Counted from the stretch's first letter, positions 15,079-47,813 are shown. The stretch: 52,464 nt of DNA from a virus (IMGVR_UViG_3300025653_004519:1-52464), one strand, 5' to 3'. Made by a program: numbers and translations. Notes: generated by a model not told the origin, from the letters alone.

Positions 15079-15101
15079 AATCTTTTATTTTCCTTGTCTA
15101 A

Positions 15102-15110
15102 TATAAATAT
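15102..15110 (-). promoter_or_regulatory. Putative late promoter ATATTTATA
   Basis: Repeated intergenic motif. Confidence 0.7.
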
Positions 15111-19405: not shown

Positions 19406-21124
19406 TTAAAGGATTTTCTTTTTTACAACATAAGAACCAAGAATCAAAATATCCATTTCACAATTTAGAAATGTTTTGATTGCATCTGTTGGGGTTAAAA
19501 CCATTGTTTGGTCTTTTAAGTTAAATGAAGTATTAATTACAATTGGAAATCCATTTACTTTATTTAACTCTTTAAGTAATAAAGAAATATATCTATTAGA
19601 GTTATGAGTTACAGTTTGTACTCTTGCAGAACCATCAATATGAGTTATTGAAGGTAATTTATCTTTAAACCTATCATTTACCTTTACAACTTGATTCATA
19701 TAAGGGATTTCTGAATCATAATTAAAGTAAGTTGTTAATGAATCAAAAGTACAAATAGGTGCAAATGGTCTAAATCCTTCTCTCTTTTTAATTACTCTAT
19801 TTAATCTTGATTTCATTTGAGGGTCACATGGATTTGCTAATATAGAACGATTACCCAATGCTCTTGCACCAAATTCTATTCTATCTTGAAATAAACCAAT
19901 GATATTATTTTCAGATATTTCTTTTGCAATATAAGGAATCATTTGTTCTCTTGGTTTCCATTCATAATAAACATCTTTAGAGTAATCATTAAGTGATTTT
20001 AAAATATCTTCTTTAGGATAAAAAGGTCCTAAGAATGGATTTATATTTGTTACTCTTTCTTGTTTTTTATTAGTATAAAATTTAGATAAAGATGCACCAA
20101 TACATGAACCAGCATCAGATGGAGCAGGTGGAATCCAAACATTTTGAAATTTTGTTTTTTCTTTTATCTTTCCATTAGCAGTTCCATTGTATGCACATCC
20201 TCCACTTAAACATAGATTTGGCGATTCTGTAATTTTATATAACTTATCTAATAGTTTAAAGAAATACTTTTCATATTGAAACTGTACAGATGCAGCTAAA
20301 TCTTTATGGTCTTGGGTTAGTGGTTCTTCTGGTAATCTATTTGTTATACCTAAATGTTCTGATAACTTTTCATTAAACATATCAGTATCAGAATATTCGT
20401 ATGTAAAGTAATCCATATTAAGTTCATATAATCCTTTATCAGATTCTTTTATAATATTTTCAAATTTAAGATTATATTTTTTTGGATTACCATATGGAGC
20501 TAATCCCATAACTTTATACTCACCTTCATTTGGTTTAAAACCTAAGAATGCTGTCATAGCTGAATACAACATACCTAACGAATCAGGAAATCCAACAGAT
20601 TCAAGTTCTTTTATTTTATTATCTCTACCTATAGCTAATGAGGTTGTTTTCCATTCACCAACCCCATCTACTGAAAGTATTGCTGAATTTTTAAATGGAG
20701 ATGTAAAATATGAATATGCTAAGTGTGAAGTGTGGTGGTCTGTAAAAGATACTTTGGTTTTCTTTCCTTTAATACTATCGATATCTTTTAATAAAATATC
20801 ATATGCCTTTTTATTTCTATCAAGTATAGTATTGTTGTTTTTCTTTGAAAAAAAATCATACCACTTCTTTGGTCTTTTTTGAGTGGTTGTTTCAATTCTA
20901 TCTAACTTTTCAGTTGGATTTTCATAAAAACAAATATAGTTTATATCTTCTTTGGTAATTGAGTTTGATTCAAATATCCATTTAATTGTATTGTGTGGAA
21001 AAGATGAATCGTGTTTTATACCTGTAAATCTTTCTTCTTCACAAGCCGATACAACTTTTCCATCTTTTAATAAACATGCTGCACTATCGTGGTAACCACA
21101 ACTTATTCCTAAAATATAACTCAT
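19406..21124 (-). CDS. Carbamoyltransferase (NodU/CmcH family)
   Basis: HDSAA, EEERF, DHHTSH, DGVGE, EYKVMGLAPYG, EFGARALGNRS, KKREGFRPFAP, NTSFN. Confidence 0.92.
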   Translation of the reverse strand: MSYILGISCGYHDSAACLLKDGKVVSACEEERFTGIKHDSSFPHNTIKWIFESNSITKEDINYICFYENPTEKLDRIETTTQKRPKKWYDFFSKKNNNTILDRNKKAYDILLKDIDSIKGKKTKVSFTDHHTSHLAYSYFTSPFKNSAILSVDGVGEWKTTSLAIGRDNKIKELESVGFPDSLGMLYSAMTAFLGFKPNEGEYKVMGLAPYGNPKKYNLKFENIIKESDKGLYELNMDYFTYEYSDTDMFNEKLSEHLGITNRLPEEPLTQDHKDLAASVQFQYEKYFFKLLDKLYKITESPNLCLSGGCAYNGTANGKIKEKTKFQNVWIPPAPSDAGSCIGASLSKFYTNKKQERVTNINPFLGPFYPKEDILKSLNDYSKDVYYEWKPREQMIPYIAKEISENNIIGLFQDRIEFGARALGNRSILANPCDPQMKSRLNRVIKKREGFRPFAPICTFDSLTTYFNYDSEIPYMNQVVKVNDRFKDKLPSITHIDGSARVQTVTHNSNRYISLLLKELNKVNGFPIVINTSFNLKDQTMVLTPTDAIKTFLNCEMDILILGSYVVKKKIL

Positions 21125-27644: not shown

Positions 27645-28261
27645 ATGAGGTTTTCTTTATATTGTCTTAGTTTATATTTAGGGTCTAAATATTTGTTAAG
27701 TTTATTTTCATTAATATTAATATTCCATGATTTAATTATATCTAAAGATTTTTGCCTATCCTTACCATATAAATCCTCGTAATAAGTAATAGGTATGTTT
27801 AATTTTTTTGATATTAATTTTATTTCTTCTTTTTCTTTTTTTAAATCTTCAAACCTGTTATCTGATTTAAAATCTTTTTTATATTCTTGAGGTATATCAC
27901 TTGGTGTCCACTTTAACATAACTGACTGTTTGTTATCCATTCTCCACATCATGTGTAAGTAACTTTCTTTATGTTCTTCTTTATTTAATCTATCAAGTAT
28001 TATAACTCTATCAAACTCTCTAATAAATTTCTTATAAAAAGATAAACCATCTGTATCTAAGTTTTTAGGCTTTTGCTTACACAAACATTTTACACAAAGC
28101 TTTGTATAATCATTAAAATTAGAAATTGGATAATCTAAATTCGTACCATAATTAATACCTGAGTTAAATGGTTCACTTAATTGATAAAACCCTTGGTCTC
28201 CGAATCCTTTTAATAAAGAAGATGTTCCACTTCGTGAAATACCAAGTATTAATATTCTCAT
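27641..28261 (-). CDS. Sulfotransferase-like protein
   Basis: GISRSGTSSL PAPS-binding loop, EPF, IILDR, YEDL. Confidence 0.75.
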   Translation of the reverse strand: MRILILGISRSGTSSLLKGFGDQGFYQLSEPFNSGINYGTNLDYPISNFNDYTKLCVKCLCKQKPKNLDTDGLSFYKKFIREFDRVIILDRLNKEEHKESYLHMMWRMDNKQSVMLKWTPSDIPQEYKKDFKSDNRFEDLKKEKEEIKLISKKLNIPITYYEDLYGKDRQKSLDIIKSWNININENKLNKYLDPKYKLRQYKENLI

Positions 28262-29643
28262 TTACTTATATTTTCTAATCTTTCTATTTCGTTTTTAATT
28301 TTTATATTCCAAGGACCCCAAGTAATATTATCAACCATCCACTTTCTATAATAAGGTGGGATTGATGCAACTGGTTTACCTTTATATTTTCCAAAGGTCA
28401 TATATACTTTTTCTATATCACCATCTTCGTTTGTTTTTTCTGCAAGATTAATACCACCTTCTAAGTGAATACCAATTTCGTGCATTGGAATACCTGTGAT
28501 TTGTTTCTTACCCTCACCAAACAATTCCCATTCTTCACCACCAGTATCTTTGTAATAAAGTTCTTCTACTTTACCAAACTTTTCTACTGAACCTACAAAA
28601 TCAACCACCAAACAATTTTCTTTTTGTGGATGAATACGAGTTCCTCTACCAACAAATTGATACCACCAAGATATAGATGCGGTTGGTCTACCTGTAATCA
28701 AACAATCTAATTCAGGATAATCAAACCCAACTGTAAGTACATTAACTTGTACGATAACTCGTATCTGTTGGTTTCTAAATTCTTCTATGATTCTTTTTCT
28801 TTCTTGCTTAGGTGTACCACCATGTACTACTGCTGCTTGAGGAATCTTTCTAGCAAGTTCTGTTGCTTGTTCTATCGTTGGTACTGCAACTAATATAGAT
28901 TTTCTATCATATACTTCTTCAATCTTTTTTACAATCTTATCACCAATGTTTTGGTTCTCATAAGAACGAGCAATAGATTCTTGTGTATATTCTGCACCAC
29001 TCGAATTATAAACTAAAGCACCAGTATCGAAATCATAAGATTGATATTCTAATGGAGTCCAATAACCTAACTTAACAATATCTTGAATCTGAGAAACATG
29101 AAGGATGTATTTAAAGAACACTCCATGTTTAGAACGATTTGTTAGCATTACCAACTTTGAAAATGGACCGGTATCTCCCATGTTGGTTTGTAATTTTAAG
29201 GGGGTAGCAGTAAGACCAAGTATGTGAGTTGCTTTCATACCATCCACAAATCTCCTTAATTGTCCTGATTTGTTTCTTGGGTATCTATCGCACTCATCTA
29301 TGATAATCTTAGTGACCCCCATCTCTTTAAACTTATACGCAATATTGATTATGGAACCAATCGTTGCATAAGTTACATCACCTAATTCTTTACTTCCCAT
29401 TGAAGCAGAATAGATAGATGCCTCTCCACCGAGAGTTATAAACTTGTCATAGTTTTGTTCTAAAAGTTCTTTTGATGGTTGTAGAACCAAAATCTTCTCA
29501 CCAAGTTCTTTTGCAATTGCAGCGATAACAATCGATTTACCGAAGGCAGTTGGTGCTACGATAATCGATGGTTTCATTTTTGGAGTTCGTAAAAACTCAA
29601 CTCCAATTGCTACTGGTTCTATTTGGTTTTCTCTTAGTTTCAT
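28258..29643 (-). CDS. SF2 DNA helicase (RadD/YejH/UvsW-like)
   Basis: PTAFGKS, DECD, TAT, GFDYP, QFVGRGTR; C-terminal MTFGKYKG module. Confidence 0.88.
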   Translation of the reverse strand: MKLRENQIEPVAIGVEFLRTPKMKPSIIVAPTAFGKSIVIAAIAKELGEKILVLQPSKELLEQNYDKFITLGGEASIYSASMGSKELGDVTYATIGSIINIAYKFKEMGVTKIIIDECDRYPRNKSGQLRRFVDGMKATHILGLTATPLKLQTNMGDTGPFSKLVMLTNRSKHGVFFKYILHVSQIQDIVKLGYWTPLEYQSYDFDTGALVYNSSGAEYTQESIARSYENQNIGDKIVKKIEEVYDRKSILVAVPTIEQATELARKIPQAAVVHGGTPKQERKRIIEEFRNQQIRVIVQVNVLTVGFDYPELDCLITGRPTASISWWYQFVGRGTRIHPQKENCLVVDFVGSVEKFGKVEELYYKDTGGEEWELFGEGKKQITGIPMHEIGIHLEGGINLAEKTNEDGDIEKVYMTFGKYKGKPVASIPPYYRKWMVDNITWGPWNIKIKNEIERLENISK

Positions 29644-40219: not shown

Positions 40220-40236
40220 TTATAATATTCCTTTTA

Positions 40237-40245
40237 TATAAATAT
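40237..40245 (-). promoter_or_regulatory. Putative late promoter ATATTTATA
   Basis: Repeated intergenic motif. Confidence 0.7.
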
Positions 40246-40421: not shown

Positions 40422-40442
40422 TGATACAACCTCCTTGTATTA

Positions 40443-40451
40443 TATAAATAT
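40443..40451 (-). promoter_or_regulatory. Putative late promoter ATATTTATA
   Basis: Repeated intergenic motif. Confidence 0.7.
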
Positions 40452-41191: not shown

Positions 41192-41857
41192 CTAAGAATA
41201 TTGTTGTAACAATCTTAATATCTCATCTAATGATTCGTGTCTGTGATTATCTAAAAGAGTTACTGCATAAACATACTTAGATTCCTTAACCTTTGGTACT
41301 TCATGTATCGCTGAATCATTAGCAAACTTTAAATCAATTTGTTGTGGGTCTCCTGTAAGAATCATAGTTGATTTTTTTCCTAATCTACCCAATACCATAC
41401 CAAGTTGTTGTTTAGTTAAGTTCTGAAACTCATCTACAATCACACAAGCATTATCAAAAGTTCTACCTCTAAAGTGAGATAGTGATACTAACTCAATGTG
41501 TTCATCTGATTCCATCTTTTGTAATATAGTTGGTTTGTTGTAAACCTTTCTCATATTAGAACGAATAGGAACTAACCAAGGTTCCATCTTCTCATCAAGT
41601 GAACCTGGTAGATATCCATTATCTTCATTTGATACTGTTGGTCTTGTTATAACTATTTGATTTATCTTACGAGTAAAAAACATATCTAATGCAATTTGTA
41701 CCGCAAGAAGTGTTTTACCACTACCAGCTTTACCCATTATGAAGTTATATGGATGATATAAGATGTTGGTCTTTGCCATCTTTTGTTCTTCAGATAAAGT
41801 TATTGAAAACTTTATTTTACCCTTTGGGGCTTGTTTGTTAACATTTTGTGTTGCCAT
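41192..41857 (-). CDS. phoH: PhoH-family ATPase
   Basis: GKAGSGKT, GYLPG, RGRTF, DEFQN, GDPQQID. Confidence 0.92.
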   Translation of the reverse strand: MATQNVNKQAPKGKIKFSITLSEEQKMAKTNILYHPYNFIMGKAGSGKTLLAVQIALDMFFTRKINQIVITRPTVSNEDNGYLPGSLDEKMEPWLVPIRSNMRKVYNKPTILQKMESDEHIELVSLSHFRGRTFDNACVIVDEFQNLTKQQLGMVLGRLGKKSTMILTGDPQQIDLKFANDSAIHEVPKVKESKYVYAVTLLDNHRHESLDEILRLLQQYS

Positions 41858-41866
41858 TTTATTCCT

Positions 41867-42307
41867 TTATATTTTTACCCATCCAGCTTTTTGCTGTACT
41901 CTTATACTATTTTTATTCCAATCATCAACCTCACATTTAAGTTTATCAATACCCAACTGTTTTGATAATACCAACATATACTTTTTTAATTGTAGTCCAT
42001 ATCCTTTATTAGTATGGAGTTTTGAAACAAATAAATTATGAGTAGTTTTTGTATTAACATCTAACCAATTCCATCCACATATTTCATTATCTAATATTAG
42101 TGTTATAAGCTTCCAACCACTATTAAATCTGGTTTTAGCATCTTCTATATCCCACATACCATCCCATTCAATCTCTGAATTAAATGTATCTATTCCTTTT
42201 TGTAATGCGATATAGTCTCCATTAAATAGGGAAATATTTGCAGGCTGAATTTCTGATGTTGGGGGGTTTTCTAAAAGATTGTATTCGAAATGAAGTTTGT
42301 GACCCAT
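41867..42307 (-). CDS. GNAT acetyltransferase
   Basis: LFVSKLHTNKGYG, N..S....KAGW. Confidence 0.8.
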   Translation of the reverse strand: MGHKLHFEYNLLENPPTSEIQPANISLFNGDYIALQKGIDTFNSEIEWDGMWDIEDAKTRFNSGWKLITLILDNEICGWNWLDVNTKTTHNLFVSKLHTNKGYGLQLKKYMLVLSKQLGIDKLKCEVDDWNKNSIRVQQKAGWVKI

Positions 42308-42328
42308 TAATTAAAACTTTATGTTTAA

Positions 42329-42337
42329 TATAAATAT
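42329..42337 (-). promoter_or_regulatory. Putative late promoter ATATTTATA
   Basis: Repeated intergenic motif. Confidence 0.65.
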
Positions 42338-42364
42338 TATAACCACATATTAATTAAGTGGTTG

Positions 42365-42991
42365 TTATAAAATATTTTTTTTATTACTAAACCCAATGTT
42401 TGTTGTTAATGTCCATCTTTCACTATCTGTAAGATTTGGTTGAGAACGATGCCAGATTGCAGAATCAAATATTAAAACATCCTCTTGTTTTACCTTAACC
42501 TCTTCCCATAACCAAGAATCATTAGTTTTTAAATATTTTTTTCTATGAGAATAATAAGGGTTTTTAAATTCAATATTACCACCATTTTTTGGTAACTCAA
42601 TATAAAGACAAGCAACAACAACTGAATCATTGTGTGAGTGTTGTCTTACATAACCATCTTTACCATATCGAGAAAACCAAGCGTTTTGTATTTCTAATTC
42701 ATATTCATTTGGGTATTTTAAATAATCGAATACAAATTTTTTACAAATTGGTTTAATAAAATTATAGTAGTTTTTTAATTCAGGGAGTTGATGTGTTGGT
42801 AAAATTTGATTTTCAAAAGAAGTAACTCCATTTTCTTCAAGATGATGTTGGTGTGGATGAGATACTAATTTTTCTGCTATTGGTTTTATAGTTGTCCAAT
42901 CTAATTTATATTGAGATTTAACCGCAGAATTTTTAAATAAATGAATATTCATTACTTTGTTATATTTTTTATTTTTAATTTTGTTTCCCAA
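42365..42991 (-). CDS. 2OG-Fe(II) oxygenase, HxH type (start probably ATG at 42952)
   Basis: W...HSH...LY...GNIEF...LIFDSAIWH...R..LTTN. Confidence 0.8.
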   Translation of the reverse strand: MGNKIKNKKYNKVMNIHLFKNSAVKSQYKLDWTTIKPIAEKLVSHPHQHHLEENGVTSFENQILPTHQLPELKNYYNFIKPICKKFVFDYLKYPNEYELEIQNAWFSRYGKDGYVRQHSHNDSVVVACLYIELPKNGGNIEFKNPYYSHRKKYLKTNDSWLWEEVKVKQEDVLIFDSAIWHRSQPNLTDSERWTLTTNIGFSNKKNIL

Positions 42992-43350
42992 TATTTTTTA
43001 TTACCATACCAATGAAGTACTTCTTCTCCTTTTTTTATATCCTTGACAGCATAAAACTGAATAATTTTTTTATCAAGTATTTGTCTCCAAGTAGCATTAT
43101 AATTATCAGAGTGATTGTAAATACAACCATACCCCAATGGTAAAACTTGTTCTATATCTCCACTCTCAGTTTTCCATTTAAATTTATAATCCATAAAGAG
43201 GTGGGGTAAAAATCCTTTCTTAAGTGGTATTTTTATAATATAGCAATCTTCTATGATTTCATCTTTCTTAATATCATCTGTTGCAAATACACCATATCCA
43301 TGTATTGAGGAATCTCTTACTTCTAGTTTTTTTGGTTGTATAAGTTTCAT
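42952..43350 (-). CDS. SET-domain lysine methyltransferase
   Basis: HGYGVFA, YNHS, DIKKGEEV..WY. Confidence 0.9.
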   Translation of the reverse strand: MKLIQPKKLEVRDSSIHGYGVFATDDIKKDEIIEDCYIIKIPLKKGFLPHLFMDYKFKWKTESGDIEQVLPLGYGCIYNHSDNYNATWRQILDKKIIQFYAVKDIKKGEEVLHWYGNKKYWETKLKIKNITK

Positions 43351-43878
43351 TTATATTAATGTTGTGGTCTGATAAAAATCTTTTTCTGTTAGGAAAATTG
43401 TTAATGAGAATCGTTCTCCATCAATAACCTCGGTTACTTCATGAATATCTGAACTGCTGAATAAAGAATATGAACCAAGGTCTCTATTTTGTGGTTTATC
43501 CTTTACTATCAAATCACCTCCAATATAACTATTTGGATTTGATAGTTGGATTACAAGTGTTTTAACAATAACATCATTAGCGTACTTTGTAAAATCAGTA
43601 TGTTTTTCAAAATAATCACCTTTAGAGTATTTAACTATTTTTACTGCTTGTTTAGTGATTGACTTAATATTAAGAATGTTAAGTTTTTTAAGAATGAATG
43701 ATATTAAAGATTTGTTATAACAATCAATATAATGTGCACTTGCGTTTCTTTTTATTGATATTGTCTCATTGTTTGGAAGATTTACAACAAGCGGTTTATT
43801 TCCGTCTAATGCCGTATCCTTGTTATAAAAAGATTTAATATAATCACATTCTTCTTTAGTGAATATGATATTTTGCAT
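43351..43878 (-). CDS. 2OG-Fe(II) oxygenase (prolyl-hydroxylase/PKHD-like)
   Basis: Y..GDYF.KHTD, YIGGDL, HEVTEV..GERFSL. Confidence 0.85.
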   Translation of the reverse strand: MQNIIFTKEECDYIKSFYNKDTALDGNKPLVVNLPNNETISIKRNASAHYIDCYNKSLISFILKKLNILNIKSITKQAVKIVKYSKGDYFEKHTDFTKYANDVIVKTLVIQLSNPNSYIGGDLIVKDKPQNRDLGSYSLFSSSDIHEVTEVIDGERFSLTIFLTEKDFYQTTTLI

Positions 43879-43883
43879 AAAAG

Positions 43884-44027
43884 TTAATCTATGTGTTTTG
43901 CCTTGAAGTATGTTACAAAGTTAGATAAAGTAGTATTTATGTTTTGTTTTGTAGTATCATCTACTGATACTGTTCTTCTTGTATCAATATCTTCTTGTGA
44001 AAATGTCTTATATATTGTTACGCTCAT
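43884..44027 (-). CDS. Small Thr-rich protein (47 aa)
   Basis: Read by hand: MSVTIYKTFSQEDIDTRRTVSVDDTTKQNINTTLSNFVTYFKAKHID; AAGGAG RBS. Confidence 0.65.
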   Translation of the reverse strand: MSVTIYKTFSQEDIDTRRTVSVDDTTKQNINTTLSNFVTYFKAKHID

Positions 44028-44038
44028 TTTAACTCCTT

Positions 44039-46333
44039 TTATTTGTTATGTACTATAATTCCATTCGCGATATACGAACTCAAATCTTTTACAGTAATGT
44101 TATATACCTTTTCTGATGCATCGGAACGAACTACTTTAATAGATTCTATTTCTATCCACTCTCCATCATGAGATATAGAATCACCAACTTTTAATTCAAG
44201 TGGTTCTTGTTCTGATTTATATGGTTCTTGGTTAGAATCAGGTACAAGAGATTTCCATACAAATGGACCACCTTCAACAGTTTCATCAGCTGTAAGGAAT
44301 GGATGTTCTGGTGTAAATTCTATACCAGTATCGTTAATTGTATAAAGAGATGGTTCATCTCCTAATGATTTACATGCTTCAGCGTGAGATGCAACTGTAT
44401 GTGAACTATCTACTGCGATTACTTCTCCATCAGCTAAATCATCATTAGTACTATCCCATCCTTTTACAACATCACCTACAACGATATCTTCAATATTTTT
44501 TTCACTATCATCTGCCAATGTAATCTTAGTACCAGCCGCAAAACAAGTTGGACCTGGTAAGGATTTAATATTGTGTACCAATAAATCTTCTGCAAAGTAT
44601 GTATGGTCATCTTTTACATCAATCAAGTGGAATACTTCAAATTCTCCGTCTAAAACTTCTCTTTCAGATAATTTTACTAACTCACCATTTTTGTTAAATA
44701 AAGAATCGCCAATTACTAATTCTTCAGCAGCTTTCCATCCACCATTTGTATATATCTTATGTCTTGGTGTTGATTTAATTTCTTCACCATTATCAGTAGT
44801 TAATTTAATTAACTTATTTTGAGTTGTAACTCTAATAGTTCCAACCTTTCCTGCTCCATATTCTTTCTTATCATTATTATATGTTAATAATATATCACTT
44901 GTGGTTATATCTTCAATATTTTTATAAGTACCATCTTCTAATAAAATTTTAGTTCCTGCAGGGAAACAGTTGTGAGTAATAATTTTTAAGTTGATATCAC
45001 CATCCTTAAGAATAAATGTATCTGTACTTTCTAAATCTAAAATATATGTTTTATGGTCTCCTTCTAAAACTTGAATATCTTTTGATGAAATATTTACTAA
45101 ACTACCTGTTGTATCAAGTAATTTATCATTAGAAATATCTAAATCATAAATATCTTTATATCTTAATTTGTCTCCAGCTGTATCGTATATTAAAAGGTGT
45201 TGGTTAGCTTGTGCTCTGAAAGTTGCTCCTGTATCTGTTTCTAATTCATAAATTAATTTTCTTGGTAAATCTTCTGATATTGAATTTACAAGTGCAGAAG
45301 ATGTTGTATATGAACCAGATGGGAATGAACTACCTGGTGATGACCAGCTTGTAAACACATCTACTGAATCGGAATCGGGTGCTCCTTCTATATATGTTGA
45401 TTTATATCTATTACCAACTACCGTGTCTTTTACTTTAACCGCAGTACCATCTTCATTTACAATTTCTTCTTCCTCAAATATACCACCATATCCATTAAAT
45501 ATTGGGAAGTTAGTTGCAAATTCATAATAGTGTTTTGTATCTACTAAGTTACTACTACCCGATGTGGTTAATGTAGTTGCTTTTTGTAATATAGCATCAA
45601 CTTCAACAGTTGCAAGATTCATTAAACTTAAATCAGTACCATATATTATATTAAATGAACGAATTGAAGATGCAACAGATGCATCAGTATCATTGTAGTA
45701 GTTCATTACAATTGAACCACTCGCTGCACTACTACTAACAAAAGCATCAACTTTTTCAGTTATTGTACCACTTGATTGTAGTTTGTAAAACTTTAAAGAG
45801 TGTTTAGGGTTTTCAACATCTTTAACAACAACATCAGGTATATTAGATGCATTCTCACTTCTTAAAAGTGTATCAACTTGATGTTCAGATGTGTTTTGAA
45901 ACATATTTGGTATAGAACCTGTATCGTTGTTATCGTAATATAATTTTAATAACTCATCATCTTGCTTACAATAAGTACTATCAAATATTGCAGATTCATC
46001 ATATGCTAATCGTAATATAAATTTACTATCACTATCAGCAACAGAAGTAGGATATATAGTTGAGTATGCCTCAGGATGAGTTACATAACTACCTGTAAAT
46101 CCATTTACTGCTAAACTCTGTGATAATTCACTTACGAAATTATCGTGAACAACACTTTTATAAATTACATTTACTTCATCAATATTACTAGATGAAATTA
46201 GATTAAAAAATTCGGTGAAATCAGTATTGTGCAATGCACCACTTGTAAAGGCAGTATCTGTGTTAAATTCTAATAATCTTAAGTTATCAGAACTGTCTTT
46301 TACAAAATCAGCTGAGAATAAAGTACCTTTCAT
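44039..46333 (-). CDS. ATP-grasp-like domain plus three tandem Hint (intein-like) domains
   Basis: N-terminal LFSADF...LLEFNTDT; Hint ends THN, VHN, VHN; Hint starts CFPAGT (aa 456) and CFAAGT (aa 597); TPRH and TPEH block-B motifs. Confidence 0.8.
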   Translation of the reverse strand: MKGTLFSADFVKDSSDNLRLLEFNTDTAFTSGALHNTDFTEFFNLISSSNIDEVNVIYKSVVHDNFVSELSQSLAVNGFTGSYVTHPEAYSTIYPTSVADSDSKFILRLAYDESAIFDSTYCKQDDELLKLYYDNNDTGSIPNMFQNTSEHQVDTLLRSENASNIPDVVVKDVENPKHSLKFYKLQSSGTITEKVDAFVSSSAASGSIVMNYYNDTDASVASSIRSFNIIYGTDLSLMNLATVEVDAILQKATTLTTSGSSNLVDTKHYYEFATNFPIFNGYGGIFEEEEIVNEDGTAVKVKDTVVGNRYKSTYIEGAPDSDSVDVFTSWSSPGSSFPSGSYTTSSALVNSISEDLPRKLIYELETDTGATFRAQANQHLLIYDTAGDKLRYKDIYDLDISNDKLLDTTGSLVNISSKDIQVLEGDHKTYILDLESTDTFILKDGDINLKIITHNCFPAGTKILLEDGTYKNIEDITTSDILLTYNNDKKEYGAGKVGTIRVTTQNKLIKLTTDNGEEIKSTPRHKIYTNGGWKAAEELVIGDSLFNKNGELVKLSEREVLDGEFEVFHLIDVKDDHTYFAEDLLVHNIKSLPGPTCFAAGTKITLADDSEKNIEDIVVGDVVKGWDSTNDDLADGEVIAVDSSHTVASHAEACKSLGDEPSLYTINDTGIEFTPEHPFLTADETVEGGPFVWKSLVPDSNQEPYKSEQEPLELKVGDSISHDGEWIEIESIKVVRSDASEKVYNITVKDLSSYIANGIIVHNK

Positions 46334-46359
46334 AAATAAGCTTCCTATCGTTTTACTTA

Positions 46360-46368
46360 TATAAATAT
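46360..46368 (-). promoter_or_regulatory. Putative late promoter ATATTTATA heading the Hint cluster
   Basis: Repeated intergenic motif. Confidence 0.7.
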
Positions 46369-46417
46369 ACTATTTTATATTTTCAATAAATTTTAAAGGA
46401 TATTAATTTTTTATCTG

Positions 46418-46502
46418 CGGAGAGAGAGGGATTCGAACCCCCGGATGCTTTCACATCGCTGGTTTTCAAGACCAGTGCATTCGACCGCTCTGCCATCTCT
46501 CC
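46418..46502 (-). tRNA. tRNA-Ser(TGA)
   Basis: Acceptor GGAGAGA/TCTCTCC, anticodon arm CTGGT-CTTGAAA-ACCAG, long variable arm, GTTCGAATC; no encoded CCA. Confidence 0.95.
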
Positions 46503-46516
46503 TACCAAGGTATCTA

Positions 46517-46735
46517 CTATTGTTCGATAACCTTTTCTACAACTTCAGGAGTTGGTGTTTCCAATTCGGTAGTATCTGCATTTATCAAACCTTCTAACTT
46601 TACCGAATTTGAATCTGTTACAACTTCTTCTGTCATTTGTTTTTTACAAACATCACATACTTTTTTATCTTTCTTTTTGTCAGTACAACTAACAAAGATT
46701 GATGTTATAAAAAATAATACTAATAGATTTTTCAT
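46517..46735 (-). CDS. Small lipoprotein
   Basis: [17 protein letters not shown] lipobox; CxxC. Confidence 0.65.
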
Positions 46736-46755
46736 AATTAATTAATTTAAATTAG

Positions 46756-46829
46756 TGGAGGATATCGGAGTCGAACCGATGACCTCTTCGGTGCAAGCGA
46801 AGCGCTCTAGCCAGCTGAGCTAATCCCCC
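46756..46829 (-). tRNA. tRNA-Ala(TGC)
   Basis: GGGGGAT/ATCCTCC with G3:U70; CTTCG-CTTGCAC-CGAAG; no encoded CCA. Confidence 0.95.
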
Positions 46830-46852
46830 TAACTATCGTTCAATTTAATATC

Positions 46853-47215
46853 TTACATATTCATTCTTAATCTGTAAGATTCTTCTTCCATTTTTTCGAT
46901 TCGTTTTATCAACTCTTGGTTGGTAGGTGGAATCATACCTTTTAATTTAGATTCTAATTTATCTAATCTTGAATCAATAAGAGAATGAACATCCTTATCT
47001 AATTCAGTAATGTTACTAGCTAACATTTCAGCATCAGTATCTACTCTATGGTGTATATCTCTATCGAGATTTCTTACCATTCTTTCAGTATCCTCTATAT
47101 AGGATTCTAAATAATTTAATCGCTTTTTTCCATTAAGTACACCATTCACCGAATACCCCAAAAGGAATATAAAGATTGATGAGAATGCACCTATTACAAT
47201 ATAAAGTGTTTCCAT
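46853..47215 (-). CDS. Single-TM coiled-coil protein
   Basis: N-terminal hydrophobic helix. Confidence 0.6.
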   Translation of the reverse strand: METLYIVIGAFSSIFIFLLGYSVNGVLNGKKRLNYLESYIEDTERMVRNLDRDIHHRVDTDAEMLASNITELDKDVHSLIDSRLDKLESKLKGMIPPTNQELIKRIEKMEEESYRLRMNM

Positions 47216-47262
47216 AATTTTATTTTTATTTAATTAAACAATATTTCAATGAACAATAGTTG

Positions 47263-47334
47263 TAGCCCCTAGGAGAATCGAACTCCTCTTTCTAGGATGA
47301 AAACCTAACGTCCTAACCGATAGACGAAGGGGCC
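47263..47334 (-). tRNA. tRNA-Glu(TTC)
   Basis: GGCCCCT/AGGGGCT, TTAGG-TTTTCAT-CCTAG, GTTCGATTC; no encoded CCA. Confidence 0.93.
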
Positions 47335-47813
47335 AAGAGTTTCTTTTCAGAATATCTAAATGAGTATTTCAATAGATAACTGAAAAAGAAATCTCCAGCA
47401 ATAGAGTTAAGAAAGAATGGTAGTGCCATTGTATAACATAATAGAATTCCTTCTATTGTTTTTGGATAACCACCCATTAACCAAACTCCAAAGTTGGTAA
47501 TAATAAAAAAGATAAGTGATGAAATAAACACATTCTTAACCCTTATCTTTTTCCAATAAGTTCCTAATATACTAATAAGGAAGAAAGAACCATACACCCA
47601 ATAAGAGATACCATAGAAACCTAAATACACATCAGATAATCCCATTGCTATTAAAGGTAAAGAGATACCTAACCACTTATTTTTAAATGTTGTTCCACCA
47701 AATAAAGCAAGTGCTGTTATTGGTGTAAAGTTTGGTGGATGTGGTAACAACCTTACCAATACCGCCATAATAACAAATCCTATAAGTAGTAGTTCTCTTT
47801 TATTCATCTTCAT
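47313..47813 (-). CDS. Membrane protein, ECF S-component-like (DUF6580-type)
   Basis: RLLPHPPNFTPI.A.ALFGG, SD..LGF, FFIITNFGVW, YTMALPFF. Confidence 0.7.
   Translation of the reverse strand: MKMNKRELLLIGFVIMAVLVRLLPHPPNFTPITALALFGGTTFKNKWLGISLPLIAMGLSDVYLGFYGISYWVYGSFFLISILGTYWKKIRVKNVFISSLIFFIITNFGVWLMGGYPKTIEGILLCYTMALPFFLNSIAGDFFFSYLLKYSFRYSEKKLLAPSSIG

Follow-up and report, generated by a model that had tools for sequence, protein, structure and literature searches.

The viral sequence record IMGVR_UViG_3300025653_004519:1-52464 raises the question of which function is served by a protein of 764 amino acids (aa) that joins an ATP-grasp-like N-terminus to three Hint domains. We analyzed the whole record (52,464 nucleotides [nt]; about 30% GC; rated by CheckV as a 31% complete virus fragment), to which we refer as the window. 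An initial annotation, made from the DNA sequence alone, had aligned the N-terminus of this protein by eye with the motif of glutathionylspermidine-synthase-type ATP-grasp ligases and had placed the protein at the head of a peptide-modification cluster. Our in silico analysis leads us, with moderate confidence, to regard the protein, which we call AGH, together with a 47-aa partner (o47) encoded behind it, as a two-subunit, self-processing amide ligase that carries exchangeable extra Hints resembling bacterial intein-like (BIL) domains. The domain architecture of AGH is almost beyond doubt; judged from its conserved residues, the protein probably cleaves itself, and, by analogy with known enzymes, a ligase activity of its ATP-grasp domain appears fairly likely.

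The N-terminal domain of AGH resembles glutathionylspermidine-synthetase-type ATP-grasp enzymes

An AlphaFold2 (AF2) model of residues 1-283, built from 119 homologs, was of high confidence (pLDDT 92.6; pTM 0.88) and had the ATP-grasp fold found in glutathione synthetases (GS) and in the glutathionylspermidine synthetase GspS. A Foldseek comparison of this model with the Protein Data Bank (PDB) yielded 14 chains at E ≤ 1e-3 (best E 8e-6; probability 1.0). Among the matches listed, those reaching this threshold (ranks 1-12) were Escherichia coli YjfC and YgiC, the glutathione synthetases of humans, yeast and soybean, and nematode GS-like proteins; the next match listed after this group had an E-value of 0.03. 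The viral structures of BFVD contained no match at E ≤ 1e-3, and the ESM Atlas returned only scores of 0.79-0.81, which lie below the level that we counted and led back to the same family.

When a profile of 48 N-domains was aligned by hhalign with a profile of the E. coli K-12 proteins YgiC, YjfC and Gss, exactly the alignment drawn by eye in the initial annotation was recovered. Residues 8-48 of AGH correspond to residues 101-141 of YgiC (E 4.8e-4), which pairs D9 with D102, E22 with E115, N24 with N117 and D26 with D119, all of them invariant in the YgiC/YjfC/Gss alignment. S7 stands opposite R100 of YgiC, in keeping with the noted replacement of the motif arginine by serine. We take the residues of the D..E-x-N-x-D motif to be metal ligands. 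D9, E22, N24, D118 and R225 are invariant down to relatives that are only about 20% identical to AGH, and R108, D112 and K171 are near-invariant in the same distant proteins. The E. coli K-12 sequences were used because none of 41 genomes from the order of an uncultured Cyanobium metagenome-assembled genome (MAG), which harbors a family member, yielded a GSP_synth sequence. RefSeq names both YgiC and YjfC peptide--spermidine ligases, and this activity is mentioned for them in a passage of PMC11762307, which cites Pederick 2023. On the evidence of the structural model, residues 1 to about 280 are best treated as a distant GS/GspS-type ATP-grasp domain; we classify this domain as a structural relative and not as a member of the Pfam family GSP_synth, since the corresponding model (PF03738) does not match it.

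Three Hint domains with intact His-Asn ends follow the ATP-grasp domain

The claim that three Hint domains lie behind the N-terminus proved correct. Hint2 and Hint3 were, between them, detected above the Pfam cut-offs by the models PT-HINT, Hint, Vint, Intein_splicing and Hom_end_hint. Hint2 is matched by PT-HINT (E 4e-15; 56.6 bits compared with a cut-off of 27.7), Hint and Vint as well as by the NCBIfam model TIGR01445, and Hint3 by Intein_splicing (E 1.4e-17) and TIGR01443. Hint1 has no Pfam match, but an AF2 model of residues 270-460 (pLDDT 86.5) was matched by Foldseek to 61 PDB chains at E ≤ 1e-3 (best E 6e-9). All of the chains listed are BIL domains, inteins or hedgehog proteins, and we count Hint1 as a Hint since every match listed for it is a Hint fold. 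The top matches were BIL2 of the Tetrahymena BUBL locus, a BIL domain of Clostridium thermocellum (TM-score 0.88; root-mean-square deviation [rmsd] 2.4 Å) and DnaB mini-inteins.

We counted the conservation of individual residues in 119 three-Hint homologs. Every one of them contains G284, H454, N455, C456, T522, H525, H587, N588, C597, H677 and N763, as well as D433, E435 and D438 of Hint1; H762 is kept in 113, and overall the Cys1, T-x-x-H and His-Asn residues of Hint2 and Hint3 are retained in 113-119. Position 1 is thus Cys in Hint2 and Hint3 and, as had been pointed out for the window protein, Gly in Hint1, without exception. The residue that follows Hint2 is variable (Phe in 45, Tyr in 17, Lys in 12, Leu in 10, Ile in 9 and Trp in 8 of the 119 proteins), and that behind Hint3 is Lys in 113 and Glu in six; in AGH it is Lys764, with which the protein ends. 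Hint1 is followed by Cys456 in the window's clade and by Val, Ala, Pro, Ser, Gly or Lys elsewhere in the family.

Pfam and NCBIfam detected no endonuclease domain in AGH, as had been stated, and two weak rows of the PADLOC model 'HEase' (E 0.001 and 0.005; 0 stretches) fall on Hint parts. The assertion that these domains are not ordinary inteins likewise stands: Hint1 lacks a nucleophile at position 1, the C-extein amounts to a single Lys, and canonical splicing is excluded because neither Hint2 nor Hint3 is followed by a nucleophile at +1. Chemically, the residues retained would still allow each of the three Hints to cleave at its C-terminal side through Asn cyclisation and would let Cys456 and Cys597 form thioesters. 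The invariance of these catalytic residues suggests that AGH undergoes autoprocessing.

The Hints that start with Cys have histories of their own. Hint3 of the homolog P0061 is 97% identical to that of AGH, whereas the ATP-grasp domain, Hint1 and Hint2 of the two proteins share only 37, 30 and 35% of their residues; P0111 gives a similar picture (41, 33 and 32%, compared with 81% in Hint3), and P0010 shows the reverse pattern (53, 60 and 79%, compared with 31% in Hint3). At least three types of Hint3 exist that differ in length, and the Cys1 Hints always sit just before the terminal Lys. Because the identity of Hint3 diverges in this way from that of the rest of the protein, Cys1 Hints seem to move between alleles, and the extra Cys1 Hints are best read as exchangeable BIL-like modules.

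A small partner protein is encoded behind AGH and is predicted to bind it

Across the 59 loci that we compared (58 distinct IMG/VR loci plus the window), the large gene is followed in every case by an o47 homolog of 43-53 aa, at a distance of -1 to 99 nt. These homologs all have Y6, nearly all have K7, and they end in F-K-x-K-H-(S/L). A sister clade of AGH, described below, has a counterpart: an ORF (open reading frame) of 41-49 aa ending in I-K-x-K-H-L-S follows the large gene in 59 of 60 loci, so that a partner is present in 118 of the 119 loci of both clades together. Among the clusters of locus ORFs, this counterpart was the only one matched by a hidden Markov model of o47 (six ORFs; E 3e-4 to 2.5e-3).

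The complex of AGH residues 1-460 with o47 was predicted with an ipSAE score of 0.84 (0.85, 0.84 and 0.83 in the individual runs), whereas the best of three controls reached 0.00; the partner had a pLDDT of at least 87, and 96% of the contacts were common to the runs. In the predicted complex, residues 4-8 of o47 add a strand to Hint1 (residues 418-425), and the o47 helix formed by residues 33-45 packs onto the ATP-grasp helix 128-137 and onto residues 8, 10, 18 and 20. Since these last interface residues alternate with the catalytic residues D9, E22 and N24, o47 looks like a subunit and not like a substrate, namely a clamp that would cover the back of the minimal ATP-grasp sheet.

AGH belongs to a large family with a sister clade that carries Cys-rich peptides

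Scoring of 8000 candidates yielded 1053 relatives of AGH. The best 120 of these are 726-788 aa long, and 113 span the full query; 118 begin with MKGT (117 proteins) or MKAT, and 114 end with HNK followed by no more than two residues. In IMG/VR, 103 loci were found, of which 80 were fetched; they encode 58 distinct proteins. Two Hints are present in 27 of these proteins, three in another 27 and four in the remaining four, and a Cys1 Hint directly follows the His-Asn of Hint1 in all 58, the number of Cys1 Hints being one, two and three in the same proportions (27, 27 and 4). Since every one of these proteins carries a Cys1 Hint, at least one such domain is fixed in the window's clade. The C-terminus is HN-K in 46 of the 58.

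A profile of the N-domain was searched against 1.84 billion representative sequences, and the matches, grouped at 50% identity, formed 328 clusters at E ≤ 1e-3. Of the 150 clusters listed, nearly all have an N-domain that starts with residue 1 or close to it, and what follows the His-Asn of Hint1 varies: one extra Hint (38 clusters), two (35) or three (2); an end within a few residues, such as HNK, HNKPKQPKK or HNPAPPPKL (11); a Cys-rich peptide of 25-45 aa (17); or such a peptide and, behind it, a single Cys1 Hint and KK (9). Two clusters have other tails, six lack a His-Asn at the expected place, and 30 are fragments. A Lys occurs among the final three residues of 95 of the 120 complete-looking proteins. 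The constants of the family thus appear to be the ATP-grasp domain, the Gly1 Hint with its His-Asn and, in most members, a Lys-bearing end, with variable cargo in between.

The sister clade comprises 289 relatives in IMG/VR, with 60 distinct proteins among the 80 fetched. These proteins of about 495 aa consist of the ATP-grasp domain, the Gly1 Hint with His-Asn and a Trp-rich peptide of 25-35 aa with six Cys residues, HN-x-C-W-C-P-W-x-Y-C-G-x-(W/Y)-C-x4-C-x2-C...K-(L/I/V). A cluster of Trp halogenases (PF04820; E 1e-88) is found nearby in 40 of the 60 loci, and we regard the Trp-rich peptide and the halogenase as a candidate phage peptide-modification cluster. Several 2-oxoglutarate (2OG) oxygenases and a weak radical-SAM match also lie near the halogenase. 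Immediately 5' of the sister-clade gene, 51 of the 60 loci carry an ORF of 95-102 aa without a Pfam family (e.g., L101:6638-6925), whereas the window's clade has no equivalent constant upstream gene. Five Pfam queries, which covered the tails rich in Cys, o47 and its counterpart in the sister clade as well as the upstream 95-aa ORF, gave no significant match; three returned nothing at all and two returned rows with E-values of 0.05-8. Hybrids between the two layouts exist (loci L083, L084 and L139; proteins P0225, P0237 and P0241), in which His-Asn is followed by a Cys-rich peptide, a Cys1 Hint and HN-KK. This arrangement, a peptide between a C-cleaving and a thioester-forming Hint, is that of engineered intein-mediated peptide cyclisation.

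Gene layout and neighboring genes

ORF calling places all genes of the region on the minus strand (Table 1), in the order promoter-like word, AGH, o47, 2OG oxygenase, SET-domain methyltransferase, second 2OG oxygenase, promoter-like word, GNAT acetyltransferase and PhoH, and all the cluster elements named in the initial annotation are present. The stop codon of AGH and the start of o47 are 11 nt apart. For the second 2OG oxygenase, a start at the ATG at position 42952 is more likely than one at the TTG at 42991. The TTG start overlaps the SET gene by 40 nt, the ATG overlaps the SET stop codon by a single base, and the resulting protein of 195 aa fits the homologs of this enzyme (189-195 aa).

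Table 1. Coordinates of AGH, its domains and partner, neighboring genes, and sister-clade examples (window positions unless a locus is given)
Feature	Position	Strand	Basis or remark
Promoter-like word ATATTTATAT	46359..46368	-	26 nt 5' of the AGH ATG
AGH, 764-aa ATP-grasp and three-Hint protein, including stop codon	44039..46333	-
Residues 1-280, minimal GspS/glutathione-synthetase-like ATP-grasp domain	45494..46333	-	AF2, Foldseek, hhalign, invariant residues
Residues 284-455, Hint1, degenerate, Gly284 ... His454-Asn455	44969..45484	-	AF2, Foldseek, conservation
Residues 456-588, Hint2, Cys456 ... Thr522-x-x-His525 ... His587-Asn588; +1 is Ile	44570..44968	-	Pfam, TIGR01445
Residues 589-596, linker IKSLPGPT between Hint2 and Hint3	44546..44569	-	Length and sequence variable in homologs
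Residues 597-763, Hint3, Cys597 ... Thr674-x-x-His677 ... His762-Asn763	44045..44545	-	Pfam, TIGR01443
Lys764, sole residue past the last His-Asn	44042..44044	-	Ends of homologs
o47, 47-aa partner protein	43884..44027	-	Linkage, predicted complex
2OG-Fe(II) oxygenase, prolyl-4-hydroxylase (P4H)-like, 175 aa, facultative neighbor	43351..43878	-	PF13640, E 3e-9
SET-domain methyltransferase, 132 aa, facultative neighbor	42952..43350	-	PF00856, E 6e-14
Second 2OG-Fe(II) oxygenase, with TTG start at 42991	42365..42991	-	PF13759, E 7e-13
Promoter-like word ATATTTATAT, further copy	42328..42337	-	21 nt before the GNAT ATG
GNAT acetyltransferase, own promoter-like word, facultative neighbor	41867..42307	-	PF00583, E 9e-7
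Sister-clade loci	L081-L160
Sister-clade gene, example	L101:7001-8488
Cys-rich tail of this gene	L101:8399-8485
Trp halogenase, example	L101:2797-4011		Same strand as the sister-clade gene, at most 3.5 kb upstream of it

The motif that had been called late is confirmed in the sense of an upstream word in excess of expectation: the window contains nine copies of ATATTTATAT, always on the minus strand, compared with 1.6 copies expected, and none of 100 shuffled sequences contained nine or more. For seven of the nine, the start codon of a listed ORF follows after 15-31 nt. We regard this word as a candidate for a phage promoter element. No copy is present between the AGH ORF and the second 2OG oxygenase gene. 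Further sites are located at 531-540, 2497-2506, 15101-15110, 40236-40245 and 40442-40451.

The neighborhood is conserved in one respect only. While o47 is fixed, the conserved linkage to a set of hydroxylation, methylation and acetylation enzymes that had been assumed is not borne out, and the modifying enzymes are facultative. Directly behind o47, a 2OG oxygenase gene is found in 25 of the 59 loci, a SET gene in 15 (plus one SET-like gene), a GNAT gene in six and other genes in 12; within three genes, the respective counts are 51 for 2OG, 18 for SET and eight for GNAT. In the loci whose backbone is closest to that of the window (PhoH about 90% identical), GNAT and PhoH stand behind o47, with no 2OG or SET gene there, and the large protein is 32-42% identical to AGH. 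The region is generally rich in 2OG paralogs (141 cluster members in 54 loci), radical-SAM-like genes and a carbamoyltransferase. The linkage to tailoring enzymes is thus frequent but not obligatory; 2OG alone nears constancy, and 2OG genes are numerous in these phages.

Immediately upstream of AGH, genes for tRNA-Ser (TGA), tRNA-Ala (TGC) and tRNA-Glu (TTC) occupy positions 46417-47334, with small ORFs interspersed; over 62 nt, the tRNA-Ser shares 90% identity with a tRNA of Synechococcus phage S-H38. Auxiliary genes of the window encode a DUF6580 membrane protein (47313-47813; E 2e-48) and a NodU/CmcH-like carbamoyltransferase (19406-21124; PHROG E 3e-116).

Proposed mechanism and competing explanations

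From the computed domain architecture, invariant residues, gene linkage and predicted complex, we infer cleavage, ligase chemistry and a substrate along the following lines. Both proteins would be made together, and o47 would lock the ATP-grasp domain to Hint1, which has no N-terminal nucleophile and would keep the C-terminal His-Asn step. An N-to-S acyl shift at Cys456 would put the carbonyl of Asn455 on sulphur, and Asn455 would then cyclise to a succinimide, whereby the chain would be cut between residues 455 and 456. Like chemistry involving Cys597, Asn588 and Asn763 would cut between residues 596 and 597, 588 and 589, and 763 and 764, and the cuts would release Hint2, an octapeptide, Hint3 and Lys. 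The remaining ATP-grasp-Hint1 core would stay bound to o47 and, by analogy with YgiC and YjfC, might couple a peptide carboxylate to a basic amine via an acyl-phosphate; a basic amine, either Lys or a polyamine, is suggested because many of the invariant residues are acidic. As the likeliest substrate we would name, very tentatively, the protein's own Lys-bearing tail, which would stay attached in cis for as long as the chain has not been cut at His-Asn.

One extension of this scheme is speculative, and we consider it rather unlikely to hold as a whole. The family might constitute a phage-borne peptide factory of a new kind, in which the enzyme itself serves as the leader: the ATP-grasp domain, stabilised by o47, would hold its own C-terminal cargo by way of a Hint reduced to a His-Asn autoprotease, and the cargo would be modified or cyclised at its Lys end and then cut off. 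The product of the sister clade would be a six-Cys, Trp-rich and possibly halogenated peptide, whereas in the window the cargo would have been replaced by Cys1 Hints. If so, the His-Asn and Cys1 flanks in the window would represent a natural I_C-peptide-I_N layout that gives thioester-activated ends for ligation.

Several points speak against the interpretation of AGH and o47 as a self-processing amide ligase. The Foldseek TM-scores of the N-terminal model are modest (0.37-0.44, with an rmsd of 8-11 Å), as the domain, with its 280 aa, falls short of YgiC and its relatives by about 100 residues, and the hhalign match has a probability of 32% and covers 41 columns. Residues 1-455 have no match in Pfam, NCBIfam or PHROGs, and the PADLOC matches of the protein are confined to its Hints; a PDB profile search with this part gave one chance match (E 1.1), and PF03738 has no match in the window (none to the protein at E ≤ 0.1). 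The case for cleavage is drawn from conserved residues, and in Hint1 the His that resembles that of block B (H379) is found in no more than 93 of the 119 homologs. The complex was computed from our own unpaired alignments, so that the calibration counts, in which 58 of 80 solved complexes and two of 110 mismatched pairs reached the mark, hold only roughly for it; and o47, if taken as a subunit, would be no candidate substrate.

The most serious competitor, which we nevertheless consider unlikely, assigns no function in the module to Hint2 and Hint3. They would be selfish, BIL-like mini-inteins lodged in a disposable tail, from which they would remove themselves by splicing or cutting, and the working protein would consist of the ATP-grasp domain, Hint1 and a short tail, like the relatives without extra Hints. 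The number of Cys1 Hints, which ranges from none to three across the family, agrees with this idea, as do the independent replacement of Hint3 (97 or 81% identity compared with 30-41% elsewhere, with P0010 reversed), the existence of 'empty' forms that end shortly behind the His-Asn of Hint1, and the hybrids in which the Cys-rich peptide is separated from the final KK by a Hint. It has difficulty, however, in accounting for the Cys1 Hint found in each of the 58 distinct proteins of the window's clade; the +1 residues, which preclude canonical splicing, and the lack of any Pfam match to a homing endonuclease also speak against it. We think it improbable that the window encodes the RiPP-like (peptide synthesized by ribosomes and modified after translation) or peptide-modification cluster envisaged initially, with the large protein as both precursor and ligase and with the 2OG, SET and GNAT enzymes tailoring its product. 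The recurrence of 2OG and SET genes within three genes of o47 (51 and 18 of 59 loci) would fit, and the genes from AGH to the second 2OG oxygenase share a single promoter-like word; yet GNAT stands behind a word of its own, the backbone-closest loci lack 2OG and SET genes behind o47, and 2OG paralogs abound in the region anyway. AGH contains no recognisable core peptide, since all that lies between Hint2 and Hint3 is a linker of 3-8 aa that varies in length and sequence among the homologs. The sister clade, with its six-Cys peptide behind His-Asn and its Trp halogenases, fits a RiPP-like interpretation better than the window's gene does.

Two further explanations were weighed. Protein tagging of the kind associated with Tetrahymena BUBL, in which a protein of the host or of the phage would attack the thioester at Cys456 or Cys597 with one of its amines and thereby gain the upstream part of AGH, strikes us as quite improbable. 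The best structural match of Hint1 is indeed BIL2 of BUBL, an intact Cys1 and His-Asn together with +1 residues that are not nucleophiles favor cleavage or aminolysis over splicing, and conserved Lys residues are present at the C-terminus and in o47 next to the invariant Y6; but in the window no cargo, ubiquitin-like or otherwise, separates the Hints, and family members without a Cys1 Hint could not act in this way. We give still less credence to an effector-immunity pair of the polymorphic-toxin type, in which the Hints would free the ATP-grasp domain as a host-directed enzyme and o47 would be its inhibitor. Such a pair would fit the PT-HINT score of Hint2, which exceeds the cut-off, and a tiny ORF located downstream, in tight linkage, with a product that is predicted to bind the enzyme. 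The domain order is reversed, however: the enzyme is N-terminal and the protein ends with HN-K without a toxin domain. Neither Pfam nor NCBIfam detected a trafficking domain, PADLOC found nothing of the kind, and o47 is predicted to touch Hint1 and the rear of the sheet rather than the face bearing D9, E22 and N24. A self-processing amide ligase with o47 as its second subunit remains the interpretation that we prefer.

Phage lineage and occurrence

The window derives from a large phage of an uncultured lineage. An identity as a T4-like phage or cyanophage was dropped: the best cultured matches of the helicase (28258-29643) are a crAss-like phage and Cellulophaga phages (36-39% identity), among the latter phi17:2 and phi4:1. 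A set of 50,697 deposited phage genomes yielded no member of the AGH family. When these genomes were searched by tblastn with AGH, only its Hint part was matched (four records), the sister-clade protein P0258 had no match, and megablast with 12 kb of the window recovered the tRNA-Ser only. A set with one genome for each of 185,579 prokaryotic species contained a single member, on a 2.8-kb contig (L161) of the uncultured Cyanobium MAG mentioned above. This is probably a phage contig that was binned with a host; as a clue that picocyanobacteria serve as hosts to some of the family it is weak, and it does not suffice for naming a host.

DNA near-identical to positions 41800-46600 occurs in freshwater, salt-marsh and marine sequencing runs (X14, X16, X17, X7). 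Six runs filed as metatranscriptomes contained 68-85% of the sampled words of the stretch, and three of these runs gave contigs that match without any difference across AGH, o47 and the beginning of the 2OG oxygenase gene (43545-46342 in one run; 43419-44507 and 44478-46485 in a second; 43646-44507 and 44478-46600 in a third). These contigs attest presence in RNA libraries and no more, as strand and level are not readable from them and DNA carry-over is possible. Genes differed in depth within these contigs, but we did not count this as evidence, since contig depth is no safe basis for ranking genes.

Novelty and comparison with known systems

In the literature, leaving aside subscription journals and supplements, we found no description of an ATP-grasp-Hint fusion, of a Hint reduced to its His-Asn step or of a family of 47-aa partners. 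The pertinent passages of a review on jumbo phages (PMC7824862) name R2K and RNA-ligase ATP-grasps and no Hint fusion. None of the curated libraries that we used (Pfam, PHROGs, NCBIfam, PADLOC) covers the N-terminal 455 residues of AGH, and o47 has no significant Pfam match. We therefore rate the module as new at the level of the system, assembled from familiar folds and with a function that we infer. If this function is correct, AGH would be the first natural protein to unite an ATP-grasp amide ligase and Hint autoprocessing in one chain, and Hint1 would be the first Hint retained solely for the C-terminal Asn-cyclisation step. The family would then be a large one, present in hundreds of IMG/VR contigs and so far confined to phage and metagenome contigs outside the deposited phage genomes and curated libraries. 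The cleavable peptides and the Trp halogenase of the sister clade point to phage-made modified peptides, a field that is almost unexplored, and for protein engineering, the natural succession of His-Asn, peptide and Cys1 and the self-contained C-cleaving Hint might serve as tools.

The enzymes closest to the N-terminal domain are YgiC/YjfC, the synthetase domain of GspS and the eukaryotic glutathione synthetases, which share with it the early D..E-x-N-x-D strand-hairpin motif and provide all the significant fold matches listed. AGH differs from the YgiC/GspS type in having Ser in place of the Arg of R-x-D, in being shorter by about 100 residues, in its fusion to Hints, in its 47-aa partner and in not being matched by PF03738. 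With BIL domains, including those of BUBL, its Hints have in common the fold, Cys1, the terminal His-Asn, a non-nucleophilic +1 residue, a tandem arrangement and location in a non-essential, variable protein; what sets AGH apart is the Gly1 of Hint1, the absence of ubiquitin-like cargo and the fusion to an ATP-grasp enzyme. Canonical mini-inteins are related in that TIGR01445 and TIGR01443 recognise blocks A, B and G in AGH, and in the occurrence of intein-free alleles and allele exchange; in contrast to them, the +1 residues of AGH are non-nucleophilic, its C-extein is a single Lys, and its gene is no conserved housekeeping gene. Class 2 and class 3 inteins lack Cys1. The C-terminal domain of Hedgehog resembles AGH in coupling an N-terminal functional domain to a thioester-releasing Hint (PDB entries 1at0 and 6tyy are among the matches of Hint1), but AGH has no sterol-recognition region, possesses several Hints, and the Hint adjacent to its enzymatic part is without a nucleophile. 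PT-HINT polymorphic toxins share the model that matches Hint2 and the small downstream ORF, whereas in AGH there is no C-terminal toxin or trafficking domain and an enzyme lies upstream. In the graspetide class of RiPPs and in the LysX-LysW system, the genes of an ATP-grasp ligase and of a protein of about 45-55 aa are coupled, just as those of AGH and o47 are. Compared with these two systems, the AGH module is distinguished by the GS/GspS-like fold of its ATP-grasp domain and by a partner with a basic C-terminus (K-x-K-H) that is predicted to act as a clamp and not as the substrate.

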